A DNA stretch of 64,000 nucleotides. Origin: an uncultured Bdellovibrionales bacterium (GTDB lineage Bacteria > Patescibacteriota > Minisyncoccia > Moranbacterales > UBA1568). The DNA is taken from positions 34,262-98,261 of the forward strand of contig CAZQWS010000002.1 of assembly GCA_964597355.1 (NCBI GenBank), written 5' to 3'. The position numbers and the translations under genes are program-made. Shown here piece after piece: positions 4,949-38,301 of this stretch. The notes beneath the pieces are model-generated. The model was not told where the DNA came from. It did not search any database and saw only the letters and a list, made by a program, of their open reading frames with translations. How positions within the stretch are numbered: the first letter of the stretch is position 1; every line of letters starts with the position of its first letter.

Positions 4949-6370
4949 CTACCCGCGGAGGATGTTGATTCTCTCGAGGAGTGTGGAGAGTTCCTCCTTA
5001 ACACGAGTACGAGTTTCTTTTTCTTTGGCTATTTTTTCTACTGCATGGAGGACGGTAGTATGGTCTCTACCTCCGAAGTATTCTCCAATAGAAGAAAGTG
5101 GGGCTTCGAGTTCGGTTCTCATGAGGTACATAGCAACTTGCCTAGGATAAGCAATTTCTTTTTTACGGCCCTTTTTAACAAGGTCCTCTGGGGTGACATG
5201 ATAAAAATCCGTAATAAGGCTAGTGATATCTTCTGGAGTGAGCTTCTTTTTGTGTTGGAGGACACTGTCCCCAAGTACTTTTTGGACCAAAGAGAGACTG
5301 ATAGGTACGTGTTGGAGTTCGCTAAAAGCGGAAATCCGTGCCAGGGCACCTTCGAGCTCCCGCACGTTATTGGTAATATGTTCTGAGATGAAGTGGAGTG
5401 AGGCCGGATCAAGGGAGATTCCCTTCTCTTGAGCCTTAGCTTCGAGGATAGCCGCTCGAGTTTCAAGGTTGGGCCGACTAATATCAGCTATCATTCCTCC
5501 CTCAAAGCGAGAGCGAAGTCGTTCTTCGAGAGTGGGGATAGCTTTAGGAGGACGGTCACTGGAGATTACGATTTGCTTATTGATTTGGTAGAGAGCGTTA
5601 AAAATGTGGAAAAACTCATTTTGGGTTTTCTCACGACCGGAAAGAAATTGTACGTCATCGATAATAAGGAGGTCTATCTGTTCGTAAGCGGTCTTAAATT
5701 GATCAACTGACTGGTTTTTTATAGATTCGACTAATTCACTAGTGAAGCGTTCAGAAGTGATGTATTTTACACGCTTTTCAGGGGAATGTTTGAGAATCTC
5801 ATTCCCAAGGGACTGAATAAGATGGGTTTTCCCAAGTCCTACCCCGCCATAAATGAAAAGAGGGTTGTAGAGGTGCCCAAGGTTCTGGGATACAGCAAAA
5901 CAAGCAGCTCGAGCGAGTTCATTATTCTCAGCGACAATAAAATTCTCAAAAGTATAACGAGGGTTGAGGTTGTTTTTAAAAATGGAGGAAGAAGTAGTAG
6001 GAACATTGACAGAATCACCTATTTTCTTTCTAATAAAACTTGCTGATTGGTTAGGGTTGGTAAAAAATGGCTTAACCGCATCAATACTATTGACTACAAT
6101 ACCATTATGTGCCTTAGTCCTATTTTCTGGGACAATAGAACAACGAATCTCAGTGACTTCTGGGGTGAGGCTCTTGAGGGCCTTTAAGATGTAGAGGTTG
6201 TATTTATTCTCTAGCCATTCTTTCGCAAAACCATTAGGAACGGCGATAGTGGCCACTCCTTTTTCAAGTGAGAGGACAGTCGTGTTTTTGAACCAAGTAA
6301 CAAAATTAGCCCTAGAAAGAGAAAGTTCAATTTGGCCTAAGGCGGCTTCCCAAAGCTCTTCGTTGGTCAT
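4949..6370 (-). CDS. dnaA: Chromosomal replication initiator protein DnaA
   Basis: 473 aa; Walker A GGVGLGKTHL, AAA+ core and C-terminal DnaA-box-binding domain (ITNNVRELEGAL...). Confidence 0.95.
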   Translation of the reverse strand: MTNEELWEAALGQIELSLSRANFVTWFKNTTVLSLEKGVATIAVPNGFAKEWLENKYNLYILKALKSLTPEVTEIRCSIVPENRTKAHNGIVVNSIDAVKPFFTNPNQSASFIRKKIGDSVNVPTTSSSIFKNNLNPRYTFENFIVAENNELARAACFAVSQNLGHLYNPLFIYGGVGLGKTHLIQSLGNEILKHSPEKRVKYITSERFTSELVESIKNQSVDQFKTAYEQIDLLIIDDVQFLSGREKTQNEFFHIFNALYQINKQIVISSDRPPKAIPTLEERLRSRFEGGMIADISRPNLETRAAILEAKAQEKGISLDPASLHFISEHITNNVRELEGALARISAFSELQHVPISLSLVQKVLGDSVLQHKKKLTPEDITSLITDFYHVTPEDLVKKGRKKEIAYPRQVAMYLMRTELEAPLSSIGEYFGGRDHTTVLHAVEKIAKEKETRTRVKEELSTLLERINILRG

Positions 6371-6739: not shown

Positions 6740-7072
6740 ATGCTTGGAAAGCCCAATCGATTACGAGGGAAAAGGCTTTTTCAAGAAGTTTTTGCTCGTG
6801 GGAAACGGGTTTTTGTTGATGGAGTGGGTTGTTTTTCACTCCCCCTGAAAGATGGTACTCTAGTAGTAGGAGTGACATTCACTCAAAAAACTTTCCCTCA
6901 CGCAGTCACCCGCCATCAATACAAACGGCGGTTACTCCACTTGGTACGAGAAGAAATCCCCTCAATACCGCAAGGGAGGGCCATAGTTTTCCATTTCCAG
7001 CGGCCACTCCCGAGACTTTCTCCCCTAGTATTACGGAGCATTGTCCAAAAACTTTTGTATCGTTCACTCTAA
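6740..7072 (+). CDS. rnpA: Ribonuclease P protein component
   Basis: 110 aa basic protein following rpmH; NRLRGKRLFQEVFARGKR motif. Confidence 0.85.
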   Translation: MLGKPNRLRGKRLFQEVFARGKRVFVDGVGCFSLPLKDGTLVVGVTFTQKTFPHAVTRHQYKRRLLHLVREEIPSIPQGRAIVFHFQRPLPRLSPLVLRSIVQKLLYRSL

Positions 7073-7845: not shown

Positions 7846-8358
7846 ATGATTCCTCTCTCACCTCGAGAATCACTCTCTCTTCAAACCAAAGACTTGCTCC
7901 AACGGTTAGGTTTCATGGCCCAAGTTTCTGTAAGCGAAAAAGCTCTTCCAGAAGATCGGGTAGAATACCACTGTGATATTCAGGTAGCTGAAGGACAACA
8001 CCTTTTGATCGGACAACATGGAGCCAATCTTCAGGCTTTGCTCCACCTCTTACGGTTGCTTACGCGAACATCCCTTCCAGAACGAGCGGTGCTTAGTATT
8101 GATCTCAATCATTATTTTGCTGAAAAAAAGAGCTTCCTTGAACAAGAAACTATGCGGACAGTCAAAGAAGTAGTAGAAACGGGTCTCCCTATGGCCCTCC
8201 GACCGATGGTGGCCTATGAACGGAAATTGGTACACACCTTCCTTGCTTCCCATGACCGAGTCATGACAGAGAGCGTTGGGAGTGGCGAAGAACGTAAAGT
8301 CCTGATTCGTTTACGTGGAGAAAAGCCACTTGAAGAGTCCTCAGCTTCACACGAATAG
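7846..8358 (+). CDS. jag: Jag/KhpB-like RNA-binding protein (Jag_N, KH, R3H domains)
   Basis: 170 aa; R3H-like region RKLVHTFLASHDRVMTESVGSGEERKVLIRL; conserved position after yidC. Confidence 0.8.
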   Translation: MIPLSPRESLSLQTKDLLQRLGFMAQVSVSEKALPEDRVEYHCDIQVAEGQHLLIGQHGANLQALLHLLRLLTRTSLPERAVLSIDLNHYFAEKKSFLEQETMRTVKEVVETGLPMALRPMVAYERKLVHTFLASHDRVMTESVGSGEERKVLIRLRGEKPLEESSASHE

Positions 8359-8372
8359 AGTAGAATGGATTC

Positions 8373-9824
8373 ATGGCCCTGGCACGAAAAATTGCCTATA
8401 ATGTCGTTTTCAATTCGACCCTCAAGGTAGTCTCGACTGTTTTTATCGCGCTTCTCTCGATCCGGCTTATTACAGGGTACCTTGGGCAAGAAGGTTTTGG
8501 TGAGTATGCTACCGTACTGGCATTCTTTGCATTTTTTGGGGCGATTGGCGATCTTGGACTCGCTCATATAACTGCCAGAGAAATCGCGAAGCCCCAAGTT
8601 GATGAATCAACTATCCTTGGAAAGGTAGTGGCCCTGCGCCTCATAGCAAGTCTTGCACTTATTGTGGTGGCTCCACTGGCCCTATTCTTCCTGCACTATC
8701 GACACGAGGTAAAGGAAGGCATCATGATCGCTGTCGTTGCTTTACTGTTTGCCCAACTCTCCACCCTCCTCAACTCGTTGTATCAAAAACGATTAGCTAT
8801 GGATCGAGTGGCTCTCGTGGAGTTTGTAGGGAAAGGCCTCCAACTCGGGCTCATTTACACAGTTGTTCGCTTTGACCTTGGATTTACGGCGCTAGTTGGA
8901 GTGCTCTTGGCCAACATGTGTTTCAATGCGGCAGTCGTATTTTTGCTCTCGCGACCGCTCGTGAAGTTCTCACTTCATTTTGACATTCCTTTTTGGAAGA
9001 TTTTTCTCAAAGACACTCTTCCTCTAGGGGCTATGGCTTTTATCACTTTTCTTTATTTCAAAATGGATACTATCCTCCTCTCCATCCTGCAACCAGCTGC
9101 CGAGGTAGGCATTTACAACGTGGCCTACAAAATCATGGAGAACCTGATTTTCTTCCCAGCGATGTTGGTGGGACTCATTCTCCCACTACTCTCTCGGGCA
9201 TACCATAGTGAACGGGCCCGATTTGAAGAAATTGCTAACAAGACAGTCAAGGTGTTCTGTATCTTGGTTCTTCCGGTGGTTATTGGGACAGTGTTTCTTG
9301 CTCCGGATATTGTACGGATTGTGAGTGGGACAAGTTTTGAAGCTTCAGCGGGAGTTCTCCAGATCCTCGCCTTTTCTCTAGCGGGTATTTTCTTTGGGCA
9401 TTACTTCAATATGCTTATTCTGGTGGGGAACGCCCAAAAAAAACTGATGTATCTTTTACTTGGGATAGCGATAGTCAATATTAGTCTCAACATCTTTCTT
9501 ATCCAAATATTCTCTTACCGTGGAGCAGCTATCGCTTCAGCCGCAACCGAACTACTCGTCGTGTTGGTTTCTGCCGGGCTGGTTTGGAAGGCTTTACATT
9601 TCTTCCCGAAACCTGACCGCCTGCTCCCAATACTCTTTTCAGCCTTTGTGATGGTGGTTACACTCATGCTGCTTTCCTCAGCCACCTTTCTTATTGCGGG
9701 GGGTGGAGCAGTATTGATGTACGCACTTTCCCTCTGGGGATTTCGGGCCATTACCCCAGAAGAGCTAGCCAGTGTTTTTGCTGGTCGTTCAAACGAAGAG
9801 ACGCCTGATCCGGCGCTCTGGTGA
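8373..9824 (+). CDS. Polysaccharide biosynthesis protein / Wzx-like flippase (MOP superfamily)
   Basis: 483 aa, about 12-14 predicted TM helices, typical MOP flippase composition. Confidence 0.75.
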   Translation: MALARKIAYNVVFNSTLKVVSTVFIALLSIRLITGYLGQEGFGEYATVLAFFAFFGAIGDLGLAHITAREIAKPQVDESTILGKVVALRLIASLALIVVAPLALFFLHYRHEVKEGIMIAVVALLFAQLSTLLNSLYQKRLAMDRVALVEFVGKGLQLGLIYTVVRFDLGFTALVGVLLANMCFNAAVVFLLSRPLVKFSLHFDIPFWKIFLKDTLPLGAMAFITFLYFKMDTILLSILQPAAEVGIYNVAYKIMENLIFFPAMLVGLILPLLSRAYHSERARFEEIANKTVKVFCILVLPVVIGTVFLAPDIVRIVSGTSFEASAGVLQILAFSLAGIFFGHYFNMLILVGNAQKKLMYLLLGIAIVNISLNIFLIQIFSYRGAAIASAATELLVVLVSAGLVWKALHFFPKPDRLLPILFSAFVMVVTLMLLSSATFLIAGGGAVLMYALSLWGFRAITPEELASVFAGRSNEETPDPALW

Positions 9825-10684
9825 TTTTCTGTATGCCTAATCAATCCGTGCTTGTTATCGTCCTTAATTATCGAGGGAAAGATGTCCTCTTGCCTTGCCT
9901 TGCTTCGCTTCTTCCAACTCTTGGACCACAGGATGCTTGTCTGGTTGTAGACAATGGAGGAGAACCAGCCCTCATGGACTTAGTTAGGCAACAACTTCCT
10001 ACGGTGCGCATTCTCTCAACCGGAGTAAATCTTGGCTTCGCTCGGGGGATGAATGTTGGTTTACGGATTGCACATGAGGAAGGGTTTGAAGCTGCTTGGC
10101 TGCTCAATAATGATGTACGGGTGGAACCAGGAGCTTTGGCCGCTTTGAAGTGTGCCCAAAGAGATTATGTGGGGAGGAATATCTTCTCTCCAGTTATATT
10201 AAATAAAGATGGGCAGATATGGTTTGCCGGAGGGAGAATAAATTATTGGCGCATGCGGGTAGAACACAGAAGGGATGCCCCAAAAGAAATGGCCCCTTTC
10301 TCTACGCAGTTTTTGACGGGTTGTGCCCTGTTTATCCCACGCGAGACGTGGGAATCAATTGGTTTTCTGGATGAACGTTACTTTTTATATTATGAAGACG
10401 CAGAATATAGCGTACGAGCCAAAGTTCATGGAGGGAAACTGTGGGTGGTTCCAGAGGCCCGAGTAAAGCACGCAGAAGTCAGTGAAGCTCATCCAGAGAA
10501 AGTCTACTGGCTCGTCCGAAGTGGGGTGGAGTTTTTCTCTCGCCATACGGTCGGCTGGAGGCGGAGTTGGGTTAGGGTGTATCTTATCGCTCGGCGGAGC
10601 AAGAACTTTCTGGATCGATTCTTTTTTGGAACAGCGCTTGCCCACTCCATCAAACGGGCGTATACTGATGCCTCGATTAAGTAG
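9821..10684 (+). CDS. Family 2 glycosyltransferase
   Basis: N-terminal GT-A fold VLVIVLNYRGKDVLLPCLASL; D-x-D-like NND region. Confidence 0.8.
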   Translation: MIFCMPNQSVLVIVLNYRGKDVLLPCLASLLPTLGPQDACLVVDNGGEPALMDLVRQQLPTVRILSTGVNLGFARGMNVGLRIAHEEGFEAAWLLNNDVRVEPGALAALKCAQRDYVGRNIFSPVILNKDGQIWFAGGRINYWRMRVEHRRDAPKEMAPFSTQFLTGCALFIPRETWESIGFLDERYFLYYEDAEYSVRAKVHGGKLWVVPEARVKHAEVSEAHPEKVYWLVRSGVEFFSRHTVGWRRSWVRVYLIARRSKNFLDRFFFGTALAHSIKRAYTDASIK

Positions 10685-10686
10685 TT

Positions 10687-11475
10687 ATGTCCCAGCCATT
10701 CCTTTCACTCATTTTTGTTAACTACCAAAGCGCTGCCTTGCTCAAGCGGGCTATAGTTTCCTGGGAAAAGCCATTGGGAGGGCTCCCTTACGAGGTCATT
10801 GTGGTCAATAATGATCCAAATGAAAATGAGGCGATTGAGAGGCTTTGTGTCCCTGGCAAGGTGAGTGTAAGGAATCTCGGCAAGAATGTTGGCTTTGGAG
10901 CGGCTAATAATAGAGCCGCCGTTTTGGCTCAAGGCGAATGGTTATTTCTTCTTAATCCAGATACAGAATATGCGACTGGTTCTATAGAGGAGCTTTTGCC
11001 AGTGCTTCAGGCGTACCCTCATTCTTTGGGAGGAGTTTGTTTGATTGATGAACAGGACAAGAAGGAAGCGTGGAGTGGCGGGAGATTCCCTACTCTCTGG
11101 AAGCTTATTTGGCAGCACTTACAGAGAACTCCCGTTCGGGCACTCTGGACGCAGCCGATGTTTACTGAGACGGATTGGGTGAGTGGGGCAGCCCTCCTTA
11201 TTTCTCGAGAGAGTTTTAAACAGCTCAATGGGTTTGACGAGAACTTTTTCCTTTACTTTGAGGATGTTGATCTCGCCGAACGAGCCAAACAAAAAGGTTT
11301 GAGCGTGTGGCATTTTCCGAACCTAGTTGTGCGCCACAGAGGTGGAGCTAGCCACGGCGAACGTGCCAAGCAGAAACAAGCCTATTATGAAAGCGAGCGG
11401 CGTTATTTTTCAAAACATCGATCACCGCTTGAAGCTCGGTGTTTTGGCTGGTTGCAAAGAATATTTTTCTCCTAG
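10687..11475 (+). CDS. Family 2 glycosyltransferase
   Basis: LSLIFVNYQSAALLKRAIVSW...VIVVNNDPNE; FEDVDLAERAKQKG. Confidence 0.8.
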   Translation: MSQPFLSLIFVNYQSAALLKRAIVSWEKPLGGLPYEVIVVNNDPNENEAIERLCVPGKVSVRNLGKNVGFGAANNRAAVLAQGEWLFLLNPDTEYATGSIEELLPVLQAYPHSLGGVCLIDEQDKKEAWSGGRFPTLWKLIWQHLQRTPVRALWTQPMFTETDWVSGAALLISRESFKQLNGFDENFFLYFEDVDLAERAKQKGLSVWHFPNLVVRHRGGASHGERAKQKQAYYESERRYFSKHRSPLEARCFGWLQRIFFS

Positions 11476-11476
11476 T

Positions 11477-12736
11477 ATGCTTTTCCTGTTTGCTCAACTT
11501 TTTCTTTTGTTTCTCCCTTTCCAGTTCGCTGTGCCTCTAGGATCAGAGGACATTCCATTGCTTCGCTTGGTTGCTCTGGGATTCATCTTTCTTTGGGGGA
11601 TAAAAGTCTTGACGGAAAGAAAGTGTGTCTTCCCCCCGCTTTTTCCCCTTGCCCTCCTTTTGAGTTGGCTCTTTTCTTTGACGTTTAGTCTTTCCTTGGC
11701 CGAGGGTATCTCGCTTGGAATGCGCAAACTCATTTTTCTGTGGAATCTTCTTCCCCTTACTGTGGTGTGGTCTCTGTTTTTGGATGAGCAGAAAAAACTA
11801 ACTCATTTAATAAGAGCCCTTATTATAGGGGGGGCATTGAGCGCTCTGGTGGGAATTAGTATTTTTCTTGCTCAATTTGTGGTAGGCGTAGAAAAAACAT
11901 TTCACCTGCTCACAGAAACGGCACTTCCTTTTTTCCTTGGAGAACGTTTGGGGAATCTTGTCACTCTCTATCCGAGTCTTTTGGTAAATATTGGAGGCGA
12001 AACCTGGCTTCGGGCAACCGCTTTTTTCCCAGACCCCCATGTAGCCTCTTTCTTTTTCGGGATCATAGCCTGTCTCGCTTGGGGACTTTTTCTCGATACC
12101 AGGGATAAATTTTTTCTGTATTCGGGAAGCATCCTTCTTCTCGTAGACATTCTTACTTTTTCGCGGGGCGGTTACCTTGGCCTCTTGGCTGCTTTAGGTA
12201 CTTTTTTCTTTGTCCAGAAGAAGGAGTGGGGGGTAAAACCATGGGTAGGCTCCACGGCTCTTCTCCCCCTGCTTCTTTGGTTTGGAGTGCCGGTGTACCA
12301 ACGGTTTTTCTCAGTCTTTACCCTTGCCGATGCTTCTAGTTTGGATAGGCTTGCTCTTTGGGGAACAGCCTGGGAAACTATCCTCTACCATCCATGGGTT
12401 GGTCTAGGTTTAGGAAACTATGCTGAATGGATACATCCTGGCTTTGGAGCTAGTATTCCATATTATGCCCATAACCTATACCTTGATATTGCAACGGAGG
12501 GAGGCCTCATAAGCCTCTTCTTATTTCTTGGGCTCTGTAGTTGGAGTTTTGTTCGAGCGCTCCGGATGGCTTTGCAGGGAAGTGGACTAGCACTTGGAGT
12601 AACAGCTGCCTTTGCTCTTTATTTCACACACTCCTTCTTTGAGACAGCACTTTTCTCTCTTCACATCACTGTCCTCTTCTCTCTCCTCTTGGTACTTCCT
12701 TTCACCAGTAGCGCGAAGCAAACTCCTGTAGAATAA
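11477..12736 (+). CDS. O-antigen ligase / polymerase (Wzy_C family) membrane protein
   Basis: Start re-assigned to the ATG at 11477, one nt after the stop of the previous gene; multi-TM; Wzy_C-like ...GNYAEWIHPGFGASIPYYAHNLYLDIATEGGL. Confidence 0.7.
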   Translation: MLFLFAQLFLLFLPFQFAVPLGSEDIPLLRLVALGFIFLWGIKVLTERKCVFPPLFPLALLLSWLFSLTFSLSLAEGISLGMRKLIFLWNLLPLTVVWSLFLDEQKKLTHLIRALIIGGALSALVGISIFLAQFVVGVEKTFHLLTETALPFFLGERLGNLVTLYPSLLVNIGGETWLRATAFFPDPHVASFFFGIIACLAWGLFLDTRDKFFLYSGSILLLVDILTFSRGGYLGLLAALGTFFFVQKKEWGVKPWVGSTALLPLLLWFGVPVYQRFFSVFTLADASSLDRLALWGTAWETILYHPWVGLGLGNYAEWIHPGFGASIPYYAHNLYLDIATEGGLISLFLFLGLCSWSFVRALRMALQGSGLALGVTAAFALYFTHSFFETALFSLHITVLFSLLLVLPFTSSAKQTPVE

Positions 12737-12757
12737 GGGAGCAGATATGATGTATCT

Positions 12758-13969
12758 ATGGTAGCCTACCCTCTTTTTTTTCTTAGCCTGGTTTTTCTTC
12801 TTTTCCCTTTGGCCCACCTTCGATTCATTGAAGGTGTACCGGTTTACCTTTCTGAAATCCCACTTCTTTTTGTGCTGGTATGGTTTGCAACCTCACCAAC
12901 TTTCTTTCAGAATCTTAAGAAGTTTGTTTCTCAAGAGAAATGGATTATAGGAGGAGGAATTTTGTTTCTCGTAGGAGCTACCCTTCCCTTTTTTTTTCAA
13001 ACAGTTCCTGGCAGTTCCTTAGGATTACTTAAAAGTTTTATTGTCCTCCCACTGATGCTTATGACAACGGTAGGAGTTCTCGGACACGAGATAGCTTCCC
13101 AGAGAAGGATCCTTTCTGCTTGGTGGCTCGGTATTTTTGTAAGTGCTTTGGTGGGCACCATACTTCTTCTTGAGGACATACTCACCTATGATGGTCGTCT
13201 CGCTTCTTTGTACGCTTCGCCCAATCATTTTGCTATGCTACTTTCCCCAGGTGTTTTTATAGGACCCTTTCTTTTCAGGACGGCTGTATCAAAATGGCGA
13301 TGGTTCTATATTCTTGGGACCTGTCTGATACTCATAGCGCTCCTTGCTACCAGATCATATGCCTCAATAGTGGCAGTAACTTTCGTGAGTCTTTTCTGGG
13401 AGGGTCCTTGTAAAAGGAGCGGGGCATTTTCATGGAAACCTATTGCCCTCACTGTTTTTTTAGTGGTTGGCTGGCTCTTCCTTGAAGGAACAACTACAAA
13501 GTTTCAATCAATTCTTGATTTTGGTGGACGGTCATCTTCGGCTTCACGACTGATGATTTGGGAATCAGCTTGGAAAATGAGTCAGGATAGTTTTCCTGTG
13601 GGTATCGGCATCGGTCGCTTTCAAGAGGTTTACCTTGAGTACCAACGATACTTCCCACCCTATCTTGAATGGGCAGTGCCAGAGCCACACAATCTGTTGC
13701 TGAGCCTTTTCTTATCAACAGGACTGATGGGACTTCTTGGTTTTTTTATAGCCACTATAGGGGTAGGGAAAAAACTTTGGCAAGCTTGTTTTGGAGAAAG
13801 TAACTCTCTCTTTGGACGATTGTATTTCAGCCTCCTGAGTTGGATACTCTTAGTGGGATTAGTAGATACTCCCTATTTCAAGAACGATCTAAGCTTTCTT
13901 TTTTGGGGGGTTGTAGGTCTTTCGCTCGCTTTTTTGGCAAGCAGAGAAGAGAAACAAGCTACAGGTTGA
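12758..13969 (+). CDS. O-antigen ligase / polymerase-like (Wzy_C family) membrane protein
   Basis: 403 aa multi-TM; WESAWKMSQDSFPVGIGIGRFQEVY...PEPHNLLLSLFLSTGLMGLLGF matches the Wzy_C HN-Y-L...E-G motif. Confidence 0.65.
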   Translation: MVAYPLFFLSLVFLLFPLAHLRFIEGVPVYLSEIPLLFVLVWFATSPTFFQNLKKFVSQEKWIIGGGILFLVGATLPFFFQTVPGSSLGLLKSFIVLPLMLMTTVGVLGHEIASQRRILSAWWLGIFVSALVGTILLLEDILTYDGRLASLYASPNHFAMLLSPGVFIGPFLFRTAVSKWRWFYILGTCLILIALLATRSYASIVAVTFVSLFWEGPCKRSGAFSWKPIALTVFLVVGWLFLEGTTTKFQSILDFGGRSSSASRLMIWESAWKMSQDSFPVGIGIGRFQEVYLEYQRYFPPYLEWAVPEPHNLLLSLFLSTGLMGLLGFFIATIGVGKKLWQACFGESNSLFGRLYFSLLSWILLVGLVDTPYFKNDLSFLFWGVVGLSLAFLASREEKQATG

Positions 13970-15112: not shown

Positions 15113-16579
15113 TTAGTACACGTGAAATGAAGAGAGATTGGTCTGGGTCGAGTAGGATTTACAGTTAATACCGACTGCGGTGTAAGGTGCACAATCTTTT
15201 GAGTTTTCATAGAGCACGGTGAGGCCAGCTGCACGGAAAGCGTCATAGTAGGTCTTTATAGTTTCAGGATCAGTCCCTCCACCTGAATTGTTAAGATCGG
15301 CACATGTGCCGTTGGTATGACAGCCACTTAGGTGATTAACGGTCGGAGGCCATGATTCGGTTATACGCCAGCCATCGACATCACTGATAGCCTGGATTTT
15401 ACTGAGGAGACCAGAGTTGAGAAAACAAGTGCTGAGCCCGCAACCCTTGTTGGGAACACTTGCTGGAATGGCGACACAATTGCTGCAGGCCTGGCAAGAT
15501 ACGGAGCTTGATTGCGGACAGCAACTAGCTCCAGTGTTGGGTGTGCCGCAGTTAGCTCCCGGGGTGTTGGTGGTAGTTGTTGGTGTAGTGGTAGGAGTTG
15601 ATATCACACTCAACCCAGGTACCGCTAACCCCTCTACCAAATCAGGATTCAAGACATAGAGGAAAAGCCAAGCAAACAAAGCAATGATAATCCCGAGCAA
15701 GGCATCCACAATGATCGTCTTGGCTGTGCTCACCCGAGCCGTATTCCCCGCACTGGTCACATACATAAACCCGCCTACTGTAAGCATAAAGAGAGCGGCT
15801 ATCCCTACTGCCCAGAAAACAAACTTGTACAAACGTTCGAGATAGCTCCCTAAGTCTCCACTCGTTCCAGCCTGCCCAGGAATCTCTTCAAGGAGGGTGT
15901 AGTTGAGCTTGTTGAGGGAAGCTTCGGCAATAGCAGCCCCGCAGCAGGATTGGCCTGTGATGGTGCAACCGCCAGAAACAGAGACTCTCCCAAGGCTAGT
16001 GCACGTTTCCGTCAAGCTTCCCATACAATCTCCTCCCTGACTTTTACAACTCCCACCGCCACCAGCGATACAGCATTGACCAGAATTACACGTACCAGCA
16101 CCCGGTCCTTCACCAGTGCCACAAGCTGCTTTACATTGCCCGCCCACACTAGGATCAGTACACTGTTTGGCACTACAAGCCTGTGGCTTGGGCAGCGGAT
16201 TGGAAGCATTAAATTTCCCACTCGGGAGGCAACATTTACCTGAAGCGACACAATCAACTTTTAAATATGCGCCAGCATCAAAGCTGTTACTATCGCATGT
16301 GTCTCCAATAGCATTGTATCCCCCTAATTCTTTACACTGATCTGCCGGCCATTCGGAATATGAAGCAGGAGAACAGCAGACGGTACCGCCAGCACCTAAG
16401 CCCGTACATTTGTTGGTGGGATCGCTGATGGAGCCCTGACCATTGTTACAAGCAATCTGACAAGAACCGCTGTTGTCTGTGCCGCACATGGCAGCGGTGG
16501 CAGTTTTGGTGTTCCCTGCAAGAAGGATAGCTGAGGCCATCAAGAGAACGCCAGAAAAAATAAGTTTAAGGACGCGCAT
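15113..16579 (-). CDS. Cys-rich secreted protein with central VirB2/T4SS-pilin-like two-helix domain and Thr/Pro linker
   Basis: 488 aa; signal peptide; about 45 Cys in two ectodomain blocks; hydrophobic hairpin FVFWAVGIAALFMLTVGGFMYVTSAGN...AKTIIVDALLGIIIALFAWLFLYVL resembles a VirB2/TrbC-type pilin core; TPTTTPTTTTNTPG linker. Confidence 0.5.
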   Translation of the reverse strand: MRVLKLIFSGVLLMASAILLAGNTKTATAAMCGTDNSGSCQIACNNGQGSISDPTNKCTGLGAGGTVCCSPASYSEWPADQCKELGGYNAIGDTCDSNSFDAGAYLKVDCVASGKCCLPSGKFNASNPLPKPQACSAKQCTDPSVGGQCKAACGTGEGPGAGTCNSGQCCIAGGGGSCKSQGGDCMGSLTETCTSLGRVSVSGGCTITGQSCCGAAIAEASLNKLNYTLLEEIPGQAGTSGDLGSYLERLYKFVFWAVGIAALFMLTVGGFMYVTSAGNTARVSTAKTIIVDALLGIIIALFAWLFLYVLNPDLVEGLAVPGLSVISTPTTTPTTTTNTPGANCGTPNTGASCCPQSSSVSCQACSNCVAIPASVPNKGCGLSTCFLNSGLLSKIQAISDVDGWRITESWPPTVNHLSGCHTNGTCADLNNSGGGTDPETIKTYYDAFRAAGLTVLYENSKDCAPYTAVGINCKSYSTQTNLSSFHVY

Positions 16580-22142: not shown

Positions 22143-23183
22143 ATGACACAACGAAAAGGAAAAAAAGTAAATCAATCCGTAAGCCCGCTCACGCAGACGG
22201 AAGTACGGGTAGTCAAACTTCGCTTGGTTGGTAAGCGGCTGGATCAGTTTTTGACCTTAGAATTTCCAGAACTTTCTCGGGAAAAAATGAAACTTCTTAT
22301 TGCTGATGGGCAGATATGGGTAGATGGGAAAATAGTGACACGACCCAATATCCGATTAACGCTCGGTATGAAAGTGGCGTGGTCCAAGACGGCAAGGAAG
22401 ATTTTGGTAAGGGAAAGTATCAAAAACGAGTCACCGGAAATGACGACATCTCTAGTCGTGGTCATAGCTGAAACTGATGATTTTCTTGTTTTGAACAAAC
22501 CAGCTGGTCTTTCCATGCATCCAGTGAGAAAAGGACAGAGAAATACCCTCACAGACTGGTTATCTACGCGTTATCCACATATTGTTGGGGTAGGTGAAGT
22601 GCCAGAGCGGCCTGGTATGGTACATCGTCTTGATAAAGACACGTCCGGTATCGTGCTCATTGCCAAGCATCAGAAAGCATTTATGGCTTTAAAAAGCCTT
22701 TTTCAAGAGAGAAAAATAAGAAAAGAGTATTTAGCATTGGTGTATGGAACGGTTGCAAGCCCGAGTGGAGTAATAGATAAGCCCTTGGGACGAGTCAAAG
22801 GAAGTATTCGACGGGCTACACCTGATGGAAAACGAACTTTTGGTGGAGCACTACGGGAAGCAGAGACAGAATATGTCTTACACACACGTTATCCACAGTA
22901 CGATTTGCTCTCTATTAAGCCAAAAACAGGCAGAACCCATCAAATTCGGGTCCACCTCGCTTCTCTAGGGCATCCTATCGTTGGTGATAAATTGTATCGT
23001 TTCAAAGAACACCGGCAAGATCCGCTTGTCCCTCTTTTTCAACTCCTTCATGCTGAAAGCGTGCGATTTCGTCTCTCCGGAAAGAACTATCGCTTCGAAG
23101 CCCCCCTTCCCGCCTATTTTCAGGATACCCTCTCTATTTTGGCTCTCCAAAAAGCCGAAAATGATGCCTCTCACCCATCTTGA
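22143..23183 (+). CDS. rluD: RluA-family 23S rRNA pseudouridine synthase (RluD-like, S4 domain + catalytic domain)
   Basis: Catalytic motif HRLDKDTSGIVLIAK; N-terminal S4-like region. Confidence 0.85.
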   Translation: MTQRKGKKVNQSVSPLTQTEVRVVKLRLVGKRLDQFLTLEFPELSREKMKLLIADGQIWVDGKIVTRPNIRLTLGMKVAWSKTARKILVRESIKNESPEMTTSLVVVIAETDDFLVLNKPAGLSMHPVRKGQRNTLTDWLSTRYPHIVGVGEVPERPGMVHRLDKDTSGIVLIAKHQKAFMALKSLFQERKIRKEYLALVYGTVASPSGVIDKPLGRVKGSIRRATPDGKRTFGGALREAETEYVLHTRYPQYDLLSIKPKTGRTHQIRVHLASLGHPIVGDKLYRFKEHRQDPLVPLFQLLHAESVRFRLSGKNYRFEAPLPAYFQDTLSILALQKAENDASHPS

Positions 23184-32881: not shown

Positions 32882-32953
32882 GTGCCCCCACCAGGAATCG
32901 AACCCAGATCGTTCCCTTAGGACGGGACAGCTCTATCCATTGAGCTACAGGGG
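32882..32953 (-). tRNA. tRNA-Arg (anticodon CCT)
   Basis: Reverse complement folds: acceptor GCCCCTG/TGGGGGC, D-arm TAGCTCAATGGATAGAGC, anticodon loop GTCCTAA, T-loop GGTTCGATTCC. Confidence 0.65.
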
Positions 32954-33130
32954 CAAATAATATGACGGATTCACTGAGAGAGAGGGTCAGTCTAGCAAGG
33001 ATTCTCGTTTCGATCAACACTCATTATTCTATCTTACGTTCTTTCTCCCAAAACAAAAAATCCAGATCGAAAGGATTTGGAAGTTTGTTTGGATTGAGTA
33101 GTCCGTTAGCTAGCAGAGAATCAAATTTGG

Positions 33131-33203
33131 TGGACCATGCCGGATTCGAACCGGCCACCCCTTCCATGCCATGGAAGTGCTCTACCAAATGAGCTAATGG
33201 CCC
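33131..33203 (-). tRNA. tRNA-Ala (anticodon GGC), CCA encoded
   Basis: Reverse complement: acceptor GGGCCAT/ATGGTCC with G3-U70, anticodon stem CTTCC/GGAAG with loop ATGGCAT, T-loop GGTTCGAATCC. Confidence 0.7.
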
Positions 33204-33313
33204 AAAAATTCTAGTACTCTCTTATCATAGAGACTTTTTTCTATTCGTCAACGGTAAAAAGATGAAGAAGATATAAAGTGGCTTAAGTAAGCATTTTTTA
33301 TAGAATTTACCCT

Positions 33314-34687
33314 GTGATTGCTCGGCGAATGATGGTATACTGTGAAACTATGTATACGCTGTTAAGAGAATTATTATGGGGAGAGAGAGCTTACCTTACT
33401 TATTGGTATGCTTTCTTGCTATCTTTCCCCTTCTCTTGGCGTAAAGTTATCTCCCCATCGGTTACAGGAGGGTCTTTTAACGAATACTTGGATCTTTCTC
33501 TTTATGTAGGAGACAGTCTCATTCTAGTAGCATTTATACTAATACTAAAACACGAAAATAGTAGAAAGTCAATATTAAGTAGTACTAAAATGTTCCACGT
33601 GGAACATTGGTTAGGAGTTATATTTGTTCTATACATCCTATGTTCATTTTTTTGGTCGGAAAATAAATGGCTCTGGATAGACGGAATTGTAAGCCTTATT
33701 CGTATTATTGCAATTCTCTCAATCTTTATTTTTACTTTTAAACTGGATAAAGAACAAGATGATTGTTCCACGTGGAACAATTTAAAGTATTTTACTTTTA
33801 TTATCGCACTCTCTCTTTTACTGCAGTCATTTGTAGGTATTTCACAATTTATACATAATCGATCGATTGGTCTTGGCGTCATTGGAGAGAGTAGTTTAAA
33901 TCAGTATACAGATGGGGTGGCAAAAATTGATTTTGATACATTTAAACAGATACGTGCTTACGGTACATTTCTGCATCCCAATGTGTTTTCTGGATATTTA
34001 GTTGTGAGTATACTGTTTGTTTTGACCTATTTACGTTTAAAAAGTGGAAAAATGTTCCACGTGGAACAATTTCTTCTCTACTTCAGTGTTTTATTGGCTA
34101 CATTAGGCCTAATTTTTACTTTTTCAAAGATTGCAATAGTTTCATTTTGTATAATGATAGGATGGTATTTGTTCCACGTGGAACAAATACATTTGAAAAA
34201 AATGTTCCACGTGGAACATTTATTTTTTTTAATGGCTTTAGTAGGGTTTTTGTTGGTCATGTTTATTTTAGGAAGAGATCAGATATTAAAGTCAATATAT
34301 GAAAGGCTTTTTATTTTTCATATACAACCAATACAGGGGGAAGAATTGCTTTTTGGTAAAGGAATGGGGCAGTCTGTCTATGCCTTGAGTGAAAATCACC
34401 CGAATTTAGAAAATTGGCAGTTGCAGCCAATCCATAATGTTTACCTTCTTATTATTTATGAAATTGGTTTATTCGGTTTTAGTATACTGTCTTATTTGAT
34501 ATTTGTGTATATACAAAATGTTCCACGTGGAACAAGTAGTCTTTTTTATGTTCCGATACTCATAATAGGAACTATCGCAATTTTTGATCACTACCTATGG
34601 GATATCTATGTTGGTCAGGTGTTGCTTGCTTTGGGATTTGGGTGGACTGTAGTAGGAGCATATATAGATATTGACAAAAATCAATAA
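33314..34687 (+). CDS. O-antigen ligase-like (Wzy_C family) membrane protein carrying six in-frame parS palindromes
   Basis: 457 aa, AT-rich, multi-TM; Wzy_C-like IRAYGTFLHPNVFSGYL and IHNVYLLIIYEIGLFGF; interrupted by short peptide insertions KMFHVEHW, DCSTWNN, KMFHVEQF, LFHVEQI, KMFHVEHL, NVPRGTS encoded by the repeated palindrome. Confidence 0.6.
   Translation: MIARRMMVYCETMYTLLRELLWGERAYLTYWYAFLLSFPFSWRKVISPSVTGGSFNEYLDLSLYVGDSLILVAFILILKHENSRKSILSSTKMFHVEHWLGVIFVLYILCSFFWSENKWLWIDGIVSLIRIIAILSIFIFTFKLDKEQDDCSTWNNLKYFTFIIALSLLLQSFVGISQFIHNRSIGLGVIGESSLNQYTDGVAKIDFDTFKQIRAYGTFLHPNVFSGYLVVSILFVLTYLRLKSGKMFHVEQFLLYFSVLLATLGLIFTFSKIAIVSFCIMIGWYLFHVEQIHLKKMFHVEHLFFLMALVGFLLVMFILGRDQILKSIYERLFIFHIQPIQGEELLFGKGMGQSVYALSENHPNLENWQLQPIHNVYLLIIYEIGLFGFSILSYLIFVYIQNVPRGTSSLFYVPILIIGTIAIFDHYLWDIYVGQVLLALGFGWTVVGAYIDIDKNQ
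33591..33606. repeat. parS-like 16-bp perfect palindrome TGTTCCACGTGGAACA, copy 1
   Basis: Exact palindrome; extended form AATGTTCCACGTGGAACATT; starts at codon position 2, giving MFHVEH. Confidence 0.7.
33764..33779. repeat. parS-like palindrome TGTTCCACGTGGAACA, copy 2
   Basis: Extended ATTGTTCCACGTGGAACAAT; codon position 1, giving CSTWN. Confidence 0.7.
34053..34068. repeat. parS-like palindrome TGTTCCACGTGGAACA, copy 3
   Basis: AAATGTTCCACGTGGAACAATTT; codon position 2, giving MFHVEQ. Confidence 0.7.
34170..34185. repeat. parS-like palindrome TGTTCCACGTGGAACA, copy 4
   Basis: 22-bp perfect palindrome ATTTGTTCCACGTGGAACAAAT; codon position 2, giving LFHVEQ. Confidence 0.7.
34203..34218. 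repeat. parS-like palindrome TGTTCCACGTGGAACA, copy 5
   Basis: 22-bp perfect palindrome AAATGTTCCACGTGGAACATTT, only 17 bp after copy 4; codon position 2, giving MFHVEH. Confidence 0.7.
34519..34534. repeat. parS-like palindrome TGTTCCACGTGGAACA, copy 6
   Basis: AAATGTTCCACGTGGAACAAGT; codon position 3, giving VPRGT. Confidence 0.7.
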
Positions 34688-34921
34688 ATATTGCATTGAA
34701 TTATTATTTTCCATTAGATTGTTAGTGGCGAGGTTTCAATGGAGTAATCTTGAAGAAAGAGGAGTTGTGTTAATAAAGATGTCTTTGTTGGTACAACGTT
34801 AGAGTGAGAAGTTCTTTGGAAATATATTTTTTTAAAAAAGCTTTTAGATAGAGCATATATGGTTGAGGATTATGTGTATTTAAAAAATAAATAGTAGCAG
34901 AGCTTCTGATTGTAGAGAGCT

Positions 34922-34930
34922 TGGTATAAT
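34922..34930 (+). promoter_or_regulatory. Extended -10 element TGGTATAAT upstream of the 35008 gene
   Basis: TGnTATAAT in the AT-rich spacer about 78 nt upstream of the ATG. Confidence 0.35.
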
Positions 34931-35007
34931 TAGCTAGAAAGAAAGAATCTATCTGAGCTATGGTACTCTGTTTAGTGTGATGATATACTGAATCTGTCCA
35001 AAACAAT

Positions 35008-35985
35008 ATGGGATTTTCGATCAAAACAAAAATTTGGAATGGAAGTTTTTTTGTTTTTCTTTTTATCACTCTTTTTTCGTTTGGTTTGGTGGTGATGGCT
35101 GATGAATCAGAAACTCTTACTGCGTACTTTGAGGATGCTGATCAGGATGGTCTCTCGGCTGAAGAGGAAAAAGCTTTTGGAACCGATCCAGCAAATAGCG
35201 ATACTGACGGAGATAGTTATTCGGATGGTGTAGAAATCGAAAGTGGTTATGATCCACTCAAGCCAGCTCCTGGAGATCGAATCACTCCTGAAGTGACTAC
35301 GGAATCTGAAACAGTCGGTCCTAACGTTGTTAATTTGACTGATATAGCTTCTGATGAGTTGGTTGCTTTGGTTGAGGAGAAACAAGCGTCCCAGGAAGAA
35401 CTGACCCCGGATGACTTGAATGCGGCAGTGGCGAAGGTACTGGAAAATGCCAATGAAGAGGTGGTGCTTCCAGAGGTGGGTGTTGATAAAATAAAAATAA
35501 AAGAGTTGTCTGATAAGCTCGAAGAAACAGAAAAGAAATTGAAACAGAAAGAAGATACGCTTGAGTATTTGACGACGATGAGTTATATACTCATGAGCAA
35601 TTCTCCGGTAACGATACGCTCCGAAGAAGATGTACCGGGACTTTTGACCAAAGGAGCGCAGGATCTTGTTGTTGCTTTGACAACAGGAAACTTTGCTATG
35701 TTTGAGGACATCAAAGCTAAAAGCGACAAAGTTTTGGAAGAGATTCAAGCCGTCGAAGTGCCGGAAAATATGATAGGGACGCATGTCAAAGCTATTCAAA
35801 TTGTCACTCTCGTCTTAACCCTTGGAGAGAAAATGAAAGCCGTAGATCCGACCAATGATCCTATTGGCCAGATGTTAGAGCTGTCTAAATTACAGGGGGC
35901 TTTATTTACGATGCAAAATTTCCTTGATGAATCAACTGAAAAAATGACAGAGATCGGTATTACTAATATCCCTCTCGACTTTTAG
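35008..35985 (+). CDS. Membrane-anchored acidic surface protein with N-terminal Asp-rich Ca-binding-like repeats, then coiled-coil
   Basis: TM anchor then DADQDGLSAEEEKAFGTDPANSDTDGDSYSDGVEIESGYDPLKP (DxDxDG repeats); KE-rich coiled-coil segment. Confidence 0.5.
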   Translation: MGFSIKTKIWNGSFFVFLFITLFSFGLVVMADESETLTAYFEDADQDGLSAEEEKAFGTDPANSDTDGDSYSDGVEIESGYDPLKPAPGDRITPEVTTESETVGPNVVNLTDIASDELVALVEEKQASQEELTPDDLNAAVAKVLENANEEVVLPEVGVDKIKIKELSDKLEETEKKLKQKEDTLEYLTTMSYILMSNSPVTIRSEEDVPGLLTKGAQDLVVALTTGNFAMFEDIKAKSDKVLEEIQAVEVPENMIGTHVKAIQIVTLVLTLGEKMKAVDPTNDPIGQMLELSKLQGALFTMQNFLDESTEKMTEIGITNIPLDF

Positions 35986-35991
35986 CGTACT

Positions 35992-37050
35992 ATGGCACGT
36001 TTTCTTCTCTCCCAATATTGGCGCAAAAAAATAGCAGTAGTTTTTTTAGTAGGATTTCTCTTCGTGTCAGCCCCTCAGCCAGTCTATGCTTGGGATGCAG
36101 TTGTCGCAGCTTCCTTCCATCGGATGATTGACACACTCTGGGAAGCTATTCAAGGGCTCCTCAAAGGTATCGCTAAACGCTTAGCGGTGGAACTCGCGGT
36201 GCGCAAGGCGAATGAAGTGACTGGAGATGGACACAAGAATAGTCCAACCTTTATTACGGACTATAAACAATATCTCCAACAAGCTGTCTATCAAGAAACC
36301 ATGATTGTGGCCAATGATTTTCTCACGGAAACACTGGGAGCCAAATATTCAGGACTCGTGTATACCGTCGCGAGTGGCAACCTTCAGTCTCTGGGAAGAA
36401 ATTATGTCAGTTATTTGGCAGCCGAAGCCCAGGAGGGACTCCGTAGCCAGACATGTAAGTATAATTTGGATCAATACACGGTTGATCCACTGACCTCACT
36501 GCGTAATGGCAATTGGCGCGTATTCAATGCGGTGGTGTCCAACCCTTGCAACAACGCGGCTGGGTATAGTGCTGAAGTACGAAAGTTTTTCCAAGAAGAT
36601 TTGAAAAAAAGAGCTGAACGCGCCAAGGTTAAGGCGATTGCCAACCAAGGGTTTATTGGGTCTGAAAAGAATGGAATCATCACAGCGCCGGGTGTACTGA
36701 TTAAAGATTTGACTGCCAAAGTTAACGCACTACCGTACGATTTGATTGCTCCGGCTAATGAATGGACGGAAATATTAGCCGCAGCCGCGGGAGCCTTTGC
36801 TAATACAGTGATGAGTAATCTCGTGCAACGAGGGTTTGAAAGTGTGGCAAAAAAGGTGGATCGAGAATTGGGCAATGTCGATAGGAAAGTGACGGAAGCT
36901 CGCCAAGATATAGAAAAAGAGTTGGGTCCAGGAGCGTACTTCCTCCGTGCCGCTGCTCAACAGGGCGCCTCCATAGGGAGCACAAATACTCAACAGGGAA
37001 CGGTTAACTTCCCTACCGATGGAGGGGTGTACTGTAATGGCGGTTGTTAA
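35992..37050 (+). CDS. Hypothetical secreted protein
   Basis: 352 aa; N-terminal signal/TM (KKIAVVFLVGFLFVSAPQPVYA); no family recognised; ends ...GGVYCNGGC. Confidence 0.45.
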   Translation: MARFLLSQYWRKKIAVVFLVGFLFVSAPQPVYAWDAVVAASFHRMIDTLWEAIQGLLKGIAKRLAVELAVRKANEVTGDGHKNSPTFITDYKQYLQQAVYQETMIVANDFLTETLGAKYSGLVYTVASGNLQSLGRNYVSYLAAEAQEGLRSQTCKYNLDQYTVDPLTSLRNGNWRVFNAVVSNPCNNAAGYSAEVRKFFQEDLKKRAERAKVKAIANQGFIGSEKNGIITAPGVLIKDLTAKVNALPYDLIAPANEWTEILAAAAGAFANTVMSNLVQRGFESVAKKVDRELGNVDRKVTEARQDIEKELGPGAYFLRAAAQQGASIGSTNTQQGTVNFPTDGGVYCNGGC

Positions 37051-37114
37051 GTTTGAGGAGACTATTTTAAAATAATATAAAAATACCTCACAAGAGCGAG
37101 GTATTTTTATATAG

Positions 37115-37150
37115 TGGACAATACTGGATTTGAACCAGCGACCTTCATTC
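37115..37150 (-). pseudogene. tRNA-like 3' half (T-arm + acceptor 3' strand) of an outer split tRNA-like gene
   Basis: Reverse complement GGTCGCTGGTTCAAATCCAGTATTGTCCA: T-arm CTGG-TTCAAAT-CCAG, acceptor ATTGTCC complementary to GGACAAT at 37307-37313. Confidence 0.45.
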
Positions 37151-37166
37151 AGCACCAAATGCCTTA
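37151..37166. repeat. Left arm of the perfect 16-bp inverted repeat (AGCACCAAATGCCTTA) flanking tRNA-Val(GAC); partner at 37259-37274
   Basis: Exact reverse-complement pair 108 bp apart. Confidence 0.7.
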
Positions 37167-37178
37167 ATTTCTTGAGTG

Positions 37179-37252
37179 TGGGTCTGTCCAGATTCGAACT
37201 GGAGACCTCTACAATGTCAATGTAGCGCTCTAACCAACTGAGCTACAGACCC
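37179..37252 (-). tRNA. tRNA-Val (anticodon GAC)
   Basis: Reverse complement: acceptor GGGTCTG/CAGACCC, D-arm TAGCTCAGTTGGTTAGAGC, anticodon stem CTACA/TGTAG with loop TTGACAT, T-loop AGTTCGAATCT. Confidence 0.75.
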
Positions 37253-37258
37253 AAGTTG

Positions 37259-37274
37259 TAAGGCATTTGGTGCT
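37259..37274. repeat. Right arm of the 16-bp inverted repeat (TAAGGCATTTGGTGCT)
   Basis: Exact reverse complement of 37151-37166. Confidence 0.7.
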
Positions 37275-37313
37275 GGATCAATGTGACGCTCTAACCAACT
37301 GAGCTAATTGTCC
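37275..37313 (-). pseudogene. tRNA-like 5' half (acceptor 5' strand, D-arm, anticodon-stem start) of the outer split tRNA-like gene
   Basis: Reverse complement GGACAATTAGCTCAGTTGGTTAGAGCGTCACATTGATCC, near-identical to the tRNA-Val 5' half up to the anticodon loop (TTGATCC vs TTGACAT). Confidence 0.45.
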
Positions 37314-37389
37314 TTTATGGGTGTAAGTGATAGGGCAAACTACCAGCCTTGGGCTGATCCGTTTTTGGCAAAAGCTACAAGCCCTATAT

Positions 37390-38301
37390 TTATACTGATG
37401 GTGCCCCACTAGTGTTTTTCTCTCCCTCAATGATTTTCTTGGTAGTCTCGACTATTTTGATATGAGGAGTTGCAGCGAGAGCATGGAAGAAAAGGAGACG
37501 AAGTGTTTCTGTAATGAGAGTGGCCAATCCAAAAACAATAATACCTCCCAGTGCATTGGCAGTCACTTCTAGCCAGAAGAATGGGATGAGGACACTGGTG
37601 ATAATAGCGAGGTTTAAGAAAAAAGTAAAGAGTAAGGAAAGGGCAATAAGAAAAAGTCCAAATAGTAGAGAGAAAAGGAGGTGTTTTTGAAAGAGTTTTA
37701 ACCCGAGTTCGAGAGCGAGTCGGGGTTTGATCCCTGTGAGGAGGGAATAGAGGAGGCCAAATTCTTTCATATAGAAAAAGGTGAGAGCAATCACGAGAAG
37801 AAAAATGGTTCCCATCTGAAACAAGGAAGGAATAACCATCGGATTTACTTTTGAAGCGATGAGGATGGGTGAAAAAATAATGAGCCCCAATAGGGTGAGA
37901 GCGGCCCAGTATAGTGTTTCAAAGAGAAAAGAAAGACCAGCGGCGCGGAGAAGATGTTTTTGATGCGGATGGATTTCTTTTGGTGAATCAGGGAGTGTAT
38001 TGAGGATGGTCCTTTCAATGAAAAGAAAGAGTGGGCCACGTAGAAGAACTCGGAGAATGCCGATACAAAGAAGAGCTAGTATAAGAACCATGAAAGTAGT
38101 TTGGTGTTCCAAAAAAAACGCGAAGAAGTTTTCTGGAGAGGAGAAATTGTCTTGGGGAAGGGGGGTGAGATGTTTGCTTAGCTGGAGAGAAAGGAAGCCG
38201 AGTACCCCAAAGGGAAGACCTAACCAGAGAAGCAGTTTTGACCGAAAGATAAGCCAAACTGCTTCTTCGAGGAGATTGAAGAAGGAGACGGTGGTCCGCA
38301 T
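37390..38301 (-). CDS. Hypothetical polytopic membrane protein
   Basis: 303 aa with about 7-8 hydrophobic helices; no family recognised. Confidence 0.45.
   Translation of the reverse strand: MRTTVSFFNLLEEAVWLIFRSKLLLWLGLPFGVLGFLSLQLSKHLTPLPQDNFSSPENFFAFFLEHQTTFMVLILALLCIGILRVLLRGPLFLFIERTILNTLPDSPKEIHPHQKHLLRAAGLSFLFETLYWAALTLLGLIIFSPILIASKVNPMVIPSLFQMGTIFLLVIALTFFYMKEFGLLYSLLTGIKPRLALELGLKLFQKHLLFSLLFGLFLIALSLLFTFFLNLAIITSVLIPFFWLEVTANALGGIIVFGLATLITETLRLLFFHALAATPHIKIVETTKKIIEGEKNTSGAPSV

Follow-up and report, generated by a model that had tools for sequence, protein, structure and literature searches.

Six parS-type palindromes within one WaaL-like gene: a probable origin-proximal centromere in a Moranbacteria-like bacterium

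The DNA analysed here is a 64-kb stretch of contig CAZQWS010000002.1 (assembly GCA_964597355.1), referred to as the window. One open reading frame (ORF) in it, coding for a membrane protein that resembles WaaL, carries six copies of a 16-bp palindrome with the sequence of parS, the site bound by the partition protein ParB. The ORF (33314–34687, forward strand) comprises 457 amino acids from a GTG start and holds all six sites; the shorter database gene call (P0001) is the one listed in Table 1.

Matches were counted across the window, both exact and with up to two mismatches, and shuffled sequence served as the expectation. Six exact copies of TGTTCCACGTGGAACA lie between 33591 and 34534 (944 bp), none being expected from the shuffles, and no further match with up to two mismatches is present in the 64 kb. 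Half-parS sequences are not enriched elsewhere in the window either (5 observed vs. 6.8 expected). The first-pass annotation of this DNA had reported the same six positions as the only cluster, lying inside a single ORF and in all three codon phases, and all of this was recovered; the phases of the six start positions are, in order, 1, 0, 1, 1, 1 and 2. It had also assigned extra symmetric flanks to every copy, for a total of 20–22 bp. The perfect palindromes in fact range from 16 to 26 bp, and only four of the six extend symmetrically beyond the 16-mer. Sites 4 and 5 are 33 bp apart. The universal chromosomal parS pattern TGTTNCACGTGNAACA is matched exactly by all six copies, and the 16-mer is the same as the perfect parS published for P. 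aeruginosa, Burkholderiales and Bdellovibrio, in agreement with its earlier identification as a Pseudomonas-type site.

Table 1. Positions of the array, its host gene and the origin markers in the window (TM, transmembrane helix).
Feature	Position	Strand	Description	Conservation
Host gene	33332–34687	+	WaaL/Wzy_C-like 12-helix membrane protein, 451 amino acids; AT-rich synonymous sites	purifying selection
parS site 1	33591–33606		20-bp perfect palindrome; (K)MFHVEH; TM2-TM3 loop	identical in 7/7 orthologues
parS site 2	33764–33779		20-bp perfect palindrome; CSTWN; TM4-TM5 loop	identical in 7/7 orthologues
parS site 3	34053–34068		16-bp perfect palindrome; (K)MFHVEQ; TM6-TM7 loop	exact in 6/7 orthologues
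parS site 4	34170–34185		26-bp perfect palindrome; LFHVEQ; TM8-TM9 loop	identical in 7/7 orthologues
parS site 5	34203–34218		22-bp perfect palindrome; (KK)MFHVEH; TM8-TM9 loop, shared with site 4; T-run after the site	exact in 6/7 orthologues
parS site 6	34519–34534		16-bp perfect palindrome; VPRGT; TM10-TM11 loop	exact in 6/7 orthologues
AT-rich tract	33200–35100		host gene and downstream intergenic DNA; GC 0.24–0.41 per 100 bp, lowest-GC 2 kb of the window	
dnaN-dnaA	3564–6370	-	markers of the replication origin region; dnaA at 4949–6370	

Folded as hairpins, the palindromes reach −10 to −15 kcal/mol and, when sites and flanks are scored as terminator-like hairpins, eight are found against 1.2 expected. 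No Rfam family or tandem repeat overlapping the array region was found. Site 5 with the T-run that follows it (AAATGTTCCACGTGGAACATTT ATTTTTTTTA, window 34200–34231, forward strand) resembles an intrinsic terminator within the ORF, on the sense strand. Its RNA hairpin is of about −10.5 kcal/mol and its T-run encodes LFFL; the run is not kept in the closest orthologue.

The 12-TM WaaL fold of the encoded protein was confirmed by structural comparison. Its earlier placement in the Wzy_C family agrees with the fold, and the protein scores 26 bits with PF04932, below the gathering threshold of 31.7 bits. In this it differs from the WaaL/Wzy_C family (PF04932; structure 7TPG/7TPJ). The precomputed database annotation lists PF04932 for P0001 and for most homologues. 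Residues R208, H215, R325, H368, D419 and H420 are invariant across 50 homologues, the Arg and His residues among them being located in two large conserved loops. The peptides encoded by the sites are confined to five short K/R-rich inter-helix loops (residues 71–95, 134–156, 232–250, 277–297 and 391–407), which alternate with the two large conserved loops; the loop at 277–297 holds two sites and the other four hold one each. The side of each loop was assigned from the topology of WaaL and the positive-inside rule. On that basis, the five parS-bearing loops are probably cytoplasmic, in which case parS would be present in every cytoplasmic loop. The flanks of the sites are A-rich on the 5' side and T-rich on the 3' side, placing Lys before the site and Phe, Leu or Ile after it, a pattern that suits a loop-to-helix boundary. 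Bacteria of the Candidate Phyla Radiation (CPR) have no lipopolysaccharide, and we know of no WaaL or Wzy gene that carries a cis-acting chromosome element.

Conservation was analysed in a codon alignment of seven orthologous host genes. The six sites occupy the same alignment columns in all seven, and 39 of the 42 copies are exact; the order of the surrounding housekeeping genes is also common to the seven loci. Invariant columns within parS amount to 31/31 at first, 32/34 at second and 30/31 at third codon positions, compared with 34%, 56% and 12% (49/402) outside parS. For the host gene with the parS codons excluded, the ratio of nonsynonymous to synonymous substitution rates (dN/dS) is 0.19–0.26, dS often being saturated. 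Because the parS columns are nearly invariant at every codon position and dN/dS is this low, the palindrome is conserved as DNA and the gene as protein. Both are under purifying selection, in two overlapping codes; the earlier proposal that the DNA and not the peptide is the conserved element is confirmed by this alignment.

The positional conservation of the sites holds in orthologues down to ~34% protein identity. In orthologues free of parS, the corresponding loops are also K-rich and about equally long but contain none of the FHVE, STWN or PRGT peptides, as seen in the orthologue of locus L035 (related loci are numbered with the prefix L). It follows that the sites were accommodated in loops already present and did not arise by insertion. 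The first-pass annotation had described in-frame, possibly lineage-specific insertions of a multiple of 3 nt, a description that has to be replaced by ancient, position-conserved sites in pre-existing loops.

A search with the host protein gave 346 homologues. Among the 120 best, nearly every one has more than one FHVE, STWN or PRGT motif, located at equivalent positions; longer homologues have 20–27 of these motifs each. That search was seeded on shared words, and a second, parS-blind sample was gathered to remove the bias. It consists of 80 species-representative loci with 10-kb flanks on each side, selected with the peptide seeds YGTF[LP]HPN[IV] and FNE[YF][LMT]DxS[LIF]Y, which are not encoded by parS. 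At least one site is present within the gene in 39 of these loci, at least three in 31 and at least ten in 11, the largest in-gene array having 18 sites in 1.55 kb. There are 1.83 parS sites per kb within the host gene and 0.0185 per kb in the flanking DNA (1.19 Mb), a 100-fold difference. The genome-wide scattering that had been raised as an objection is thus not seen in the flanks.

The few sites in the flanks mostly belong to arrays adjoining an orthologue without internal sites. Noncoding arrays are located just downstream of a parS-free host orthologue and before a YraN-like gene in L035 (11849–12320; nine sites, several half-sites being degenerate at position 6) and in L046 (1346–2707), and just after gyrA in L160 (2419–3184). 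These three loci represent other CPR or low-GC lineages. The homologues beside the arrays of L035 and L046 belong to the host orthogroup and not to the paralogues of the window.

Related DNA totalling 1.49 Mb contains 360 sites, and variation among them is restricted to position 5 (C/T) and position 12 (G/A), which are the degenerate positions of canonical parS. Asymmetric hybrids are present, for example those that combine C at position 5 and A at position 12, so that half-sites evolve independently and the stem is not what is preserved. Such independence fits a dimeric binding protein and argues against a hairpin.

The arrangement is ancient, and judging from the related sequences it has expanded to 13–18 sites in some relatives. 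Expanded arrays were observed in L004, L005, L006, L011, L018, L029, L043 and L070, with host genes at ~10.0–11.9 kb in each locus. The spacing of neighbouring sites in these arrays corresponds to 16 bp plus whole codons (98 of 111 short spacings are of the form 3n+1, 37 and 49 bp being the commonest), and the reading frame consequently rotates from FHVE to PRGT to STWN. This spacing is not independent evidence, since the expanded arrays are orthologous and represent few independent events. Some spacers recur within one gene (in L070, one is present four times), a sign of duplication or gene conversion within the gene. A helical phasing of the array was considered and rejected, as the common spacings of 34, 37, 40, 49 and 52 bp have no shared helical phase.

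The company that this 16-mer keeps elsewhere was analysed by a scan of metagenomes for pairs of exact sites with 15–45 bp between them (starts 31–61 bp apart), which returned at least 120 loci. Among the matches listed, a ParB ORF is located within 1–2 kb in 34 of 120 loci, and two ParB loci were confirmed as canonical (argS-parS-parA-parB-DUF4446 and gidA-gidB-parA-parB). Most of the listed loci come from high-GC organisms with two or three sites, and four belong to the host family and hold the largest arrays (7–11 sites). Low-GC ParB-bearing loci of the scan were considered as CPR candidates and rejected, their contexts being ordinary Firmicutes-like or gidAB-parAB ones. The host gene lies immediately next to gyrA in L198 and L174. 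In the close relative L168, whose GyrA and DnaA are 69% and 54% identical to those of the window, a noncoding array lies directly upstream of dnaA. A ~186-bp tandem repeat with pairs of exact parS extends there from 13560 to 13872, among TTATCCACA-like DnaA boxes, and the locus ends inside the repeat. Judged from the ParB genes near the scan arrays and from the contexts of L168, L174 and L198, the 16-mer is associated with ParB in nature and, in the Moranbacteria-like clade, appears to track the origin region, whether coding or noncoding.

The array of the window is itself situated near the presumed origin. The yidC-jag genes, beginning at 6829, diverge from dnaN-dnaA, and the cumulative GC-skew minimum is found at ~4–5 kb. 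The distance from the array to dnaA, dnaN and yidC is 27–29 kb, in line with the ~27 kb first given for dnaA. Perfect DnaA boxes (TTATCCACA) are present at 4932, near dnaA, and at 22571 and 22889, within a pseudouridine-synthase gene (22143–23183), and oriC is not clearly delimited by DnaA box counts.

The gene content of the window includes ribonucleotide reductase, L19, RbfA, FtsH, TilS, Gmk, S1, GyrA, PNPase and KsgA, as well as a T4SS-pilin-like protein (T4SS, type IV secretion system) and two further Wzy_C paralogues. It is the ordinary chromosome of a CPR/Patescibacteria-type, Moranbacteria-like organism. Five orthologous loci (L081–L085), whose proteins are 81–53% identical to the host protein, have in common the order Metallophos, UDG, DHH, RbfA, tRNAs, host gene, three hypotheticals, FtsH, TilS, Gmk, S1, MBL and GyrA. 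What the first-pass annotation called a tRNA-flanked island is consequently a conserved housekeeping neighbourhood. No integrase, rep, parAB or other mobile gene was found among the annotated neighbours in the window, all of which are housekeeping genes.

The host gene is indeed more AT-rich than its surroundings, the GC content being 0.32–0.36 at 33–35 kb and ~0.47 elsewhere in the window. With parS masked, its GC content at third codon positions is 0.27, compared with 0.37–0.55 in all other genes tested, among them its paralogues and further polytopic membrane proteins. In the sample of 80 loci, the GC dip grows with the number of sites (Spearman correlation 0.80, a statistic that ignores phylogeny). 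The mean dip is 0.117 at loci with at least three sites and 0.017 at loci without sites; equally GC-rich genomes without sites have no dip. A foreign origin, the meaning formerly given to this composition, does not hold, as it is a property of synonymous sites conserved across species. Recent horizontal transfer was likewise rejected as its cause, on synteny and saturated dS.

Some features of the neighbourhood may be recorded separately. A surface-glycan cluster lies beside the origin (7846–13969) and comprises jag, a Polysacc_synt flippase, two GT2 glycosyltransferases and the two Wzy_C paralogues; none of these genes has parS and none is AT-rich. Downstream of the host gene (35008–38301) are encoded a TSP3-repeat-like secreted protein, a 352-amino-acid protein with an apparent signal peptide and a 303-amino-acid polytopic membrane protein. 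These three have no firm Pfam assignment and are kept in most orthologous loci examined, two being called in L082. A 488-amino-acid protein encoded on the reverse strand at 15113–16579 has a weak T4SS_pilin match (E 1e-5); T4SS_pilin-like proteins are common in CPR genomes. Many third-party records of metagenome-assembled genomes (MAGs), including L001, L002, L007, L008, L012, L015, L016 and L018, are titled 'uncultured Bdellovibrionales' or 'Candidatus Saccharibacteria', while their loci are Moranbacteria-like. Such titles are probably taxonomic mislabels, on the basis of host-gene orthology and, for L001, of the identity of cluster P0126 with the syntenic contig.

Taken together, the six palindromes are likely to be a functional, origin-proximal chromosomal centromere of the ParB type in a Moranbacteria-like CPR bacterium. 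Of the roles first proposed, a chromosomal partition or SMC-loading site is the best reading of what is a canonical parS, near the origin and in the only cluster of the window. ParB dimers would load at the parS sites as clamps dependent on cytidine triphosphate (CTP) and then spread, and the resulting partition complex would serve origin segregation through ParA, SMC loading or both. The whole array is packed in one WaaL-like gene, with one or two sites per short loop, in five loops that are probably cytoplasmic and probably tolerate almost any peptide.

Several observations weigh against this assignment. No gene for ParB, ParA or SMC was detected in the window, nor was any detected within 10 kb of ~45 host-gene arrays; in other bacteria, parB often adjoins parS. 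Moreover, oriC is placed by dnaA synteny and GC skew alone, a single perfect DnaA box being located close by. A ParB complex should also collide with transcription and translation of the host gene. Searches with tblastn (Spo0J and Soj) and with a hidden Markov model built from three ParBs gave no match in the window or in 85 related loci (1.49 Mb around arrays); the same model readily detects ParB in the metagenome loci. A ParB profile run against a billion-scale database returned only Bacillus and Caulobacter, which validates the query and is uninformative for CPR, and literature searches on parS or ParB in CPR/Moranbacteria, and on the peptides encoded by the sites, gave nothing relevant. 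In favour of the assignment, the sole CPR example is the saccharibacterium Southlakia, from another class, in which the canonical parA-parB pair (K03496/K03497) is scored as essential or growth-defective by transposon sequencing.

It is possible, though rather doubtful, that the placement of the centromere in a WaaL-like gene is functional and not incidental, by membrane tethering or by gating of expression. In the first case, transertion of the WaaL-like protein would hold the parS/ParB complex, and with it the origin, at the membrane, which would provide ParA-independent or ParA-assisting origin anchoring in minimal cells. In the second, ParB occupancy would control the expression of a surface-glycan enzyme and thereby couple envelope synthesis to the segregation cycle. 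In either case, selection for a 'landing pad' would include the conserved AT-richness of the synonymous sites.

The same array might instead be read by a protein other than ParB, either a ParB/Noc paralogue or an unrelated dimeric regulator, and act as an operator or roadblock for the WaaL-like gene. This would be in keeping with the failure to locate ParB in the 1.49 Mb around arrays, with the intragenic position of the sites and with the excess of terminator-like hairpins. We nevertheless consider it unlikely, as the 16-mer is identical to experimentally validated parS and varies only at positions that ParB tolerates, and a noncoding array beside dnaA or gyrA, as found in relatives, would make no sense as a regulator of the WaaL-like gene. 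The core of the Noc site, ATTTCCCGGGAAAT, differs from the 16-mer of the window, which speaks against Noc-type binding. To our knowledge, there is also no precedent for 13–18 operators serving one gene.

A role without any DNA-binding protein, whether as a peptide motif, an mRNA or DNA hairpin or a selfish palindrome similar to repetitive extragenic palindromic (REP) sequences or miniature inverted-repeat transposable elements (MITEs), is very improbable. FHVE(H/Q) does occur four times in the protein and the hairpins are stable at the energies given above, but one and the same sequence yields FHVE, STWN or PRGT depending on which of the three frames is used, parS-free orthologues lack all three peptides, and the hybrid sites break base pairing without compensation. 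A REP- or MITE-like origin is contradicted by the zero copies elsewhere in the window, by their near absence from the 1.19 Mb of flanks and by the lack of an Rfam family or tandem repeat. Finally, the array could be the partition site of a horizontally acquired element, plasmid or phage-like, that is integrated or was once extrachromosomal. The first-pass annotation had entertained such an element, and low regional GC and the tRNA genes on either side of the host gene (32882–33203 and 37178–37252) could suggest it. This reading is effectively refuted already by a gene order kept in five loci with saturated synonymous sites, by sites at identical codons in all orthologues, by an AT-richness confined to the gene and conserved across species, and by the absence of integrase, rep, parAB and other mobile genes from the window.

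If the ParB-type centromere is accepted, the locus offers a natural example of overlapping codes, in which purifying selection acts at once on a protein and on an array of protein-binding sites. It would give the cell biology of CPR/Patescibacteria, which is almost unknown, a concrete candidate centromere, and it raises the mechanistic question of how a gene can be transcribed and translated while it serves as a platform for the loading of ParB-CTP clamps. In practical terms, the array can serve as a sequence landmark of the origin region in fragmented CPR MAGs. The FHVE, STWN and PRGT 'motifs' of WaaL-like host proteins are driven by the DNA, which is a warning for annotation.

Clusters of parS near the origin and single intragenic parS sites are textbook knowledge. 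What is new is the packaging of a whole array in one WaaL-like gene, with dual selection, an AT-rich body and positions fixed across dozens of species; a multi-site centromere in the loop codons of one membrane-protein gene, kept over deep divergence in an uncultured clade and expanded there to as many as 18 sites, was not found in the literature searched. The parS inside the coding sequence of spo0J in B. subtilis was the first parS described. It resembles the present sites in being a functional, in-frame parS in a protein gene, and the NVPRET of the Spo0J protein sequence contains VPRET, read in the same frame as VPRGT in the window. B. subtilis differs in having a single site per gene, the others being scattered over hundreds of kb, whereas the clade of the window has 6–18 sites in one gene at positions conserved across a large clade.

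Most species have one to four parS sites (PMC3899335). Comparable in density is the cluster of M. xanthus, with 22–24 sites of the consensus TGTTCCACGTGGAACG in ~3 kb, located ~35 kb from oriC (PMC3899335). It shares with the window a dense, origin-proximal array of essentially the same 16-mer, at ~7 sites per kb compared with 6.4 per kb in the window and up to 11.6 per kb in its relatives. The array, which had been called unusually dense, is thus dense, yet no denser than published cases such as M. xanthus (22 sites in 3 kb). The cluster of M. xanthus is 4 kb from parAB and ParB binding to it was shown in vitro (PMC3899335), whereas the array of the window is contained in the loop codons of one conserved, AT-rich ORF with no parAB within 10 kb.

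The parS1–4 sites of P. aeruginosa have the identical perfect TGTTCCACGTGGAACA, again with more than one site close to oriC, and a single site is enough for function (PMC4368675, PMC7022226). They differ in that the four are spread across several kb and lie in separate genes or between genes, with parAB nearby and with data from chromatin immunoprecipitation (PMC4368675, PMC7022226). In Streptococcus pneumoniae, ParB, CpsD and RocS mediate a crosstalk between capsule synthesis and chromosome segregation (PMC7022226), a precedent for linking surface-polysaccharide machinery with ParB-parS. The link is made there by protein–protein interaction, and not by parS sites within a polysaccharide gene.

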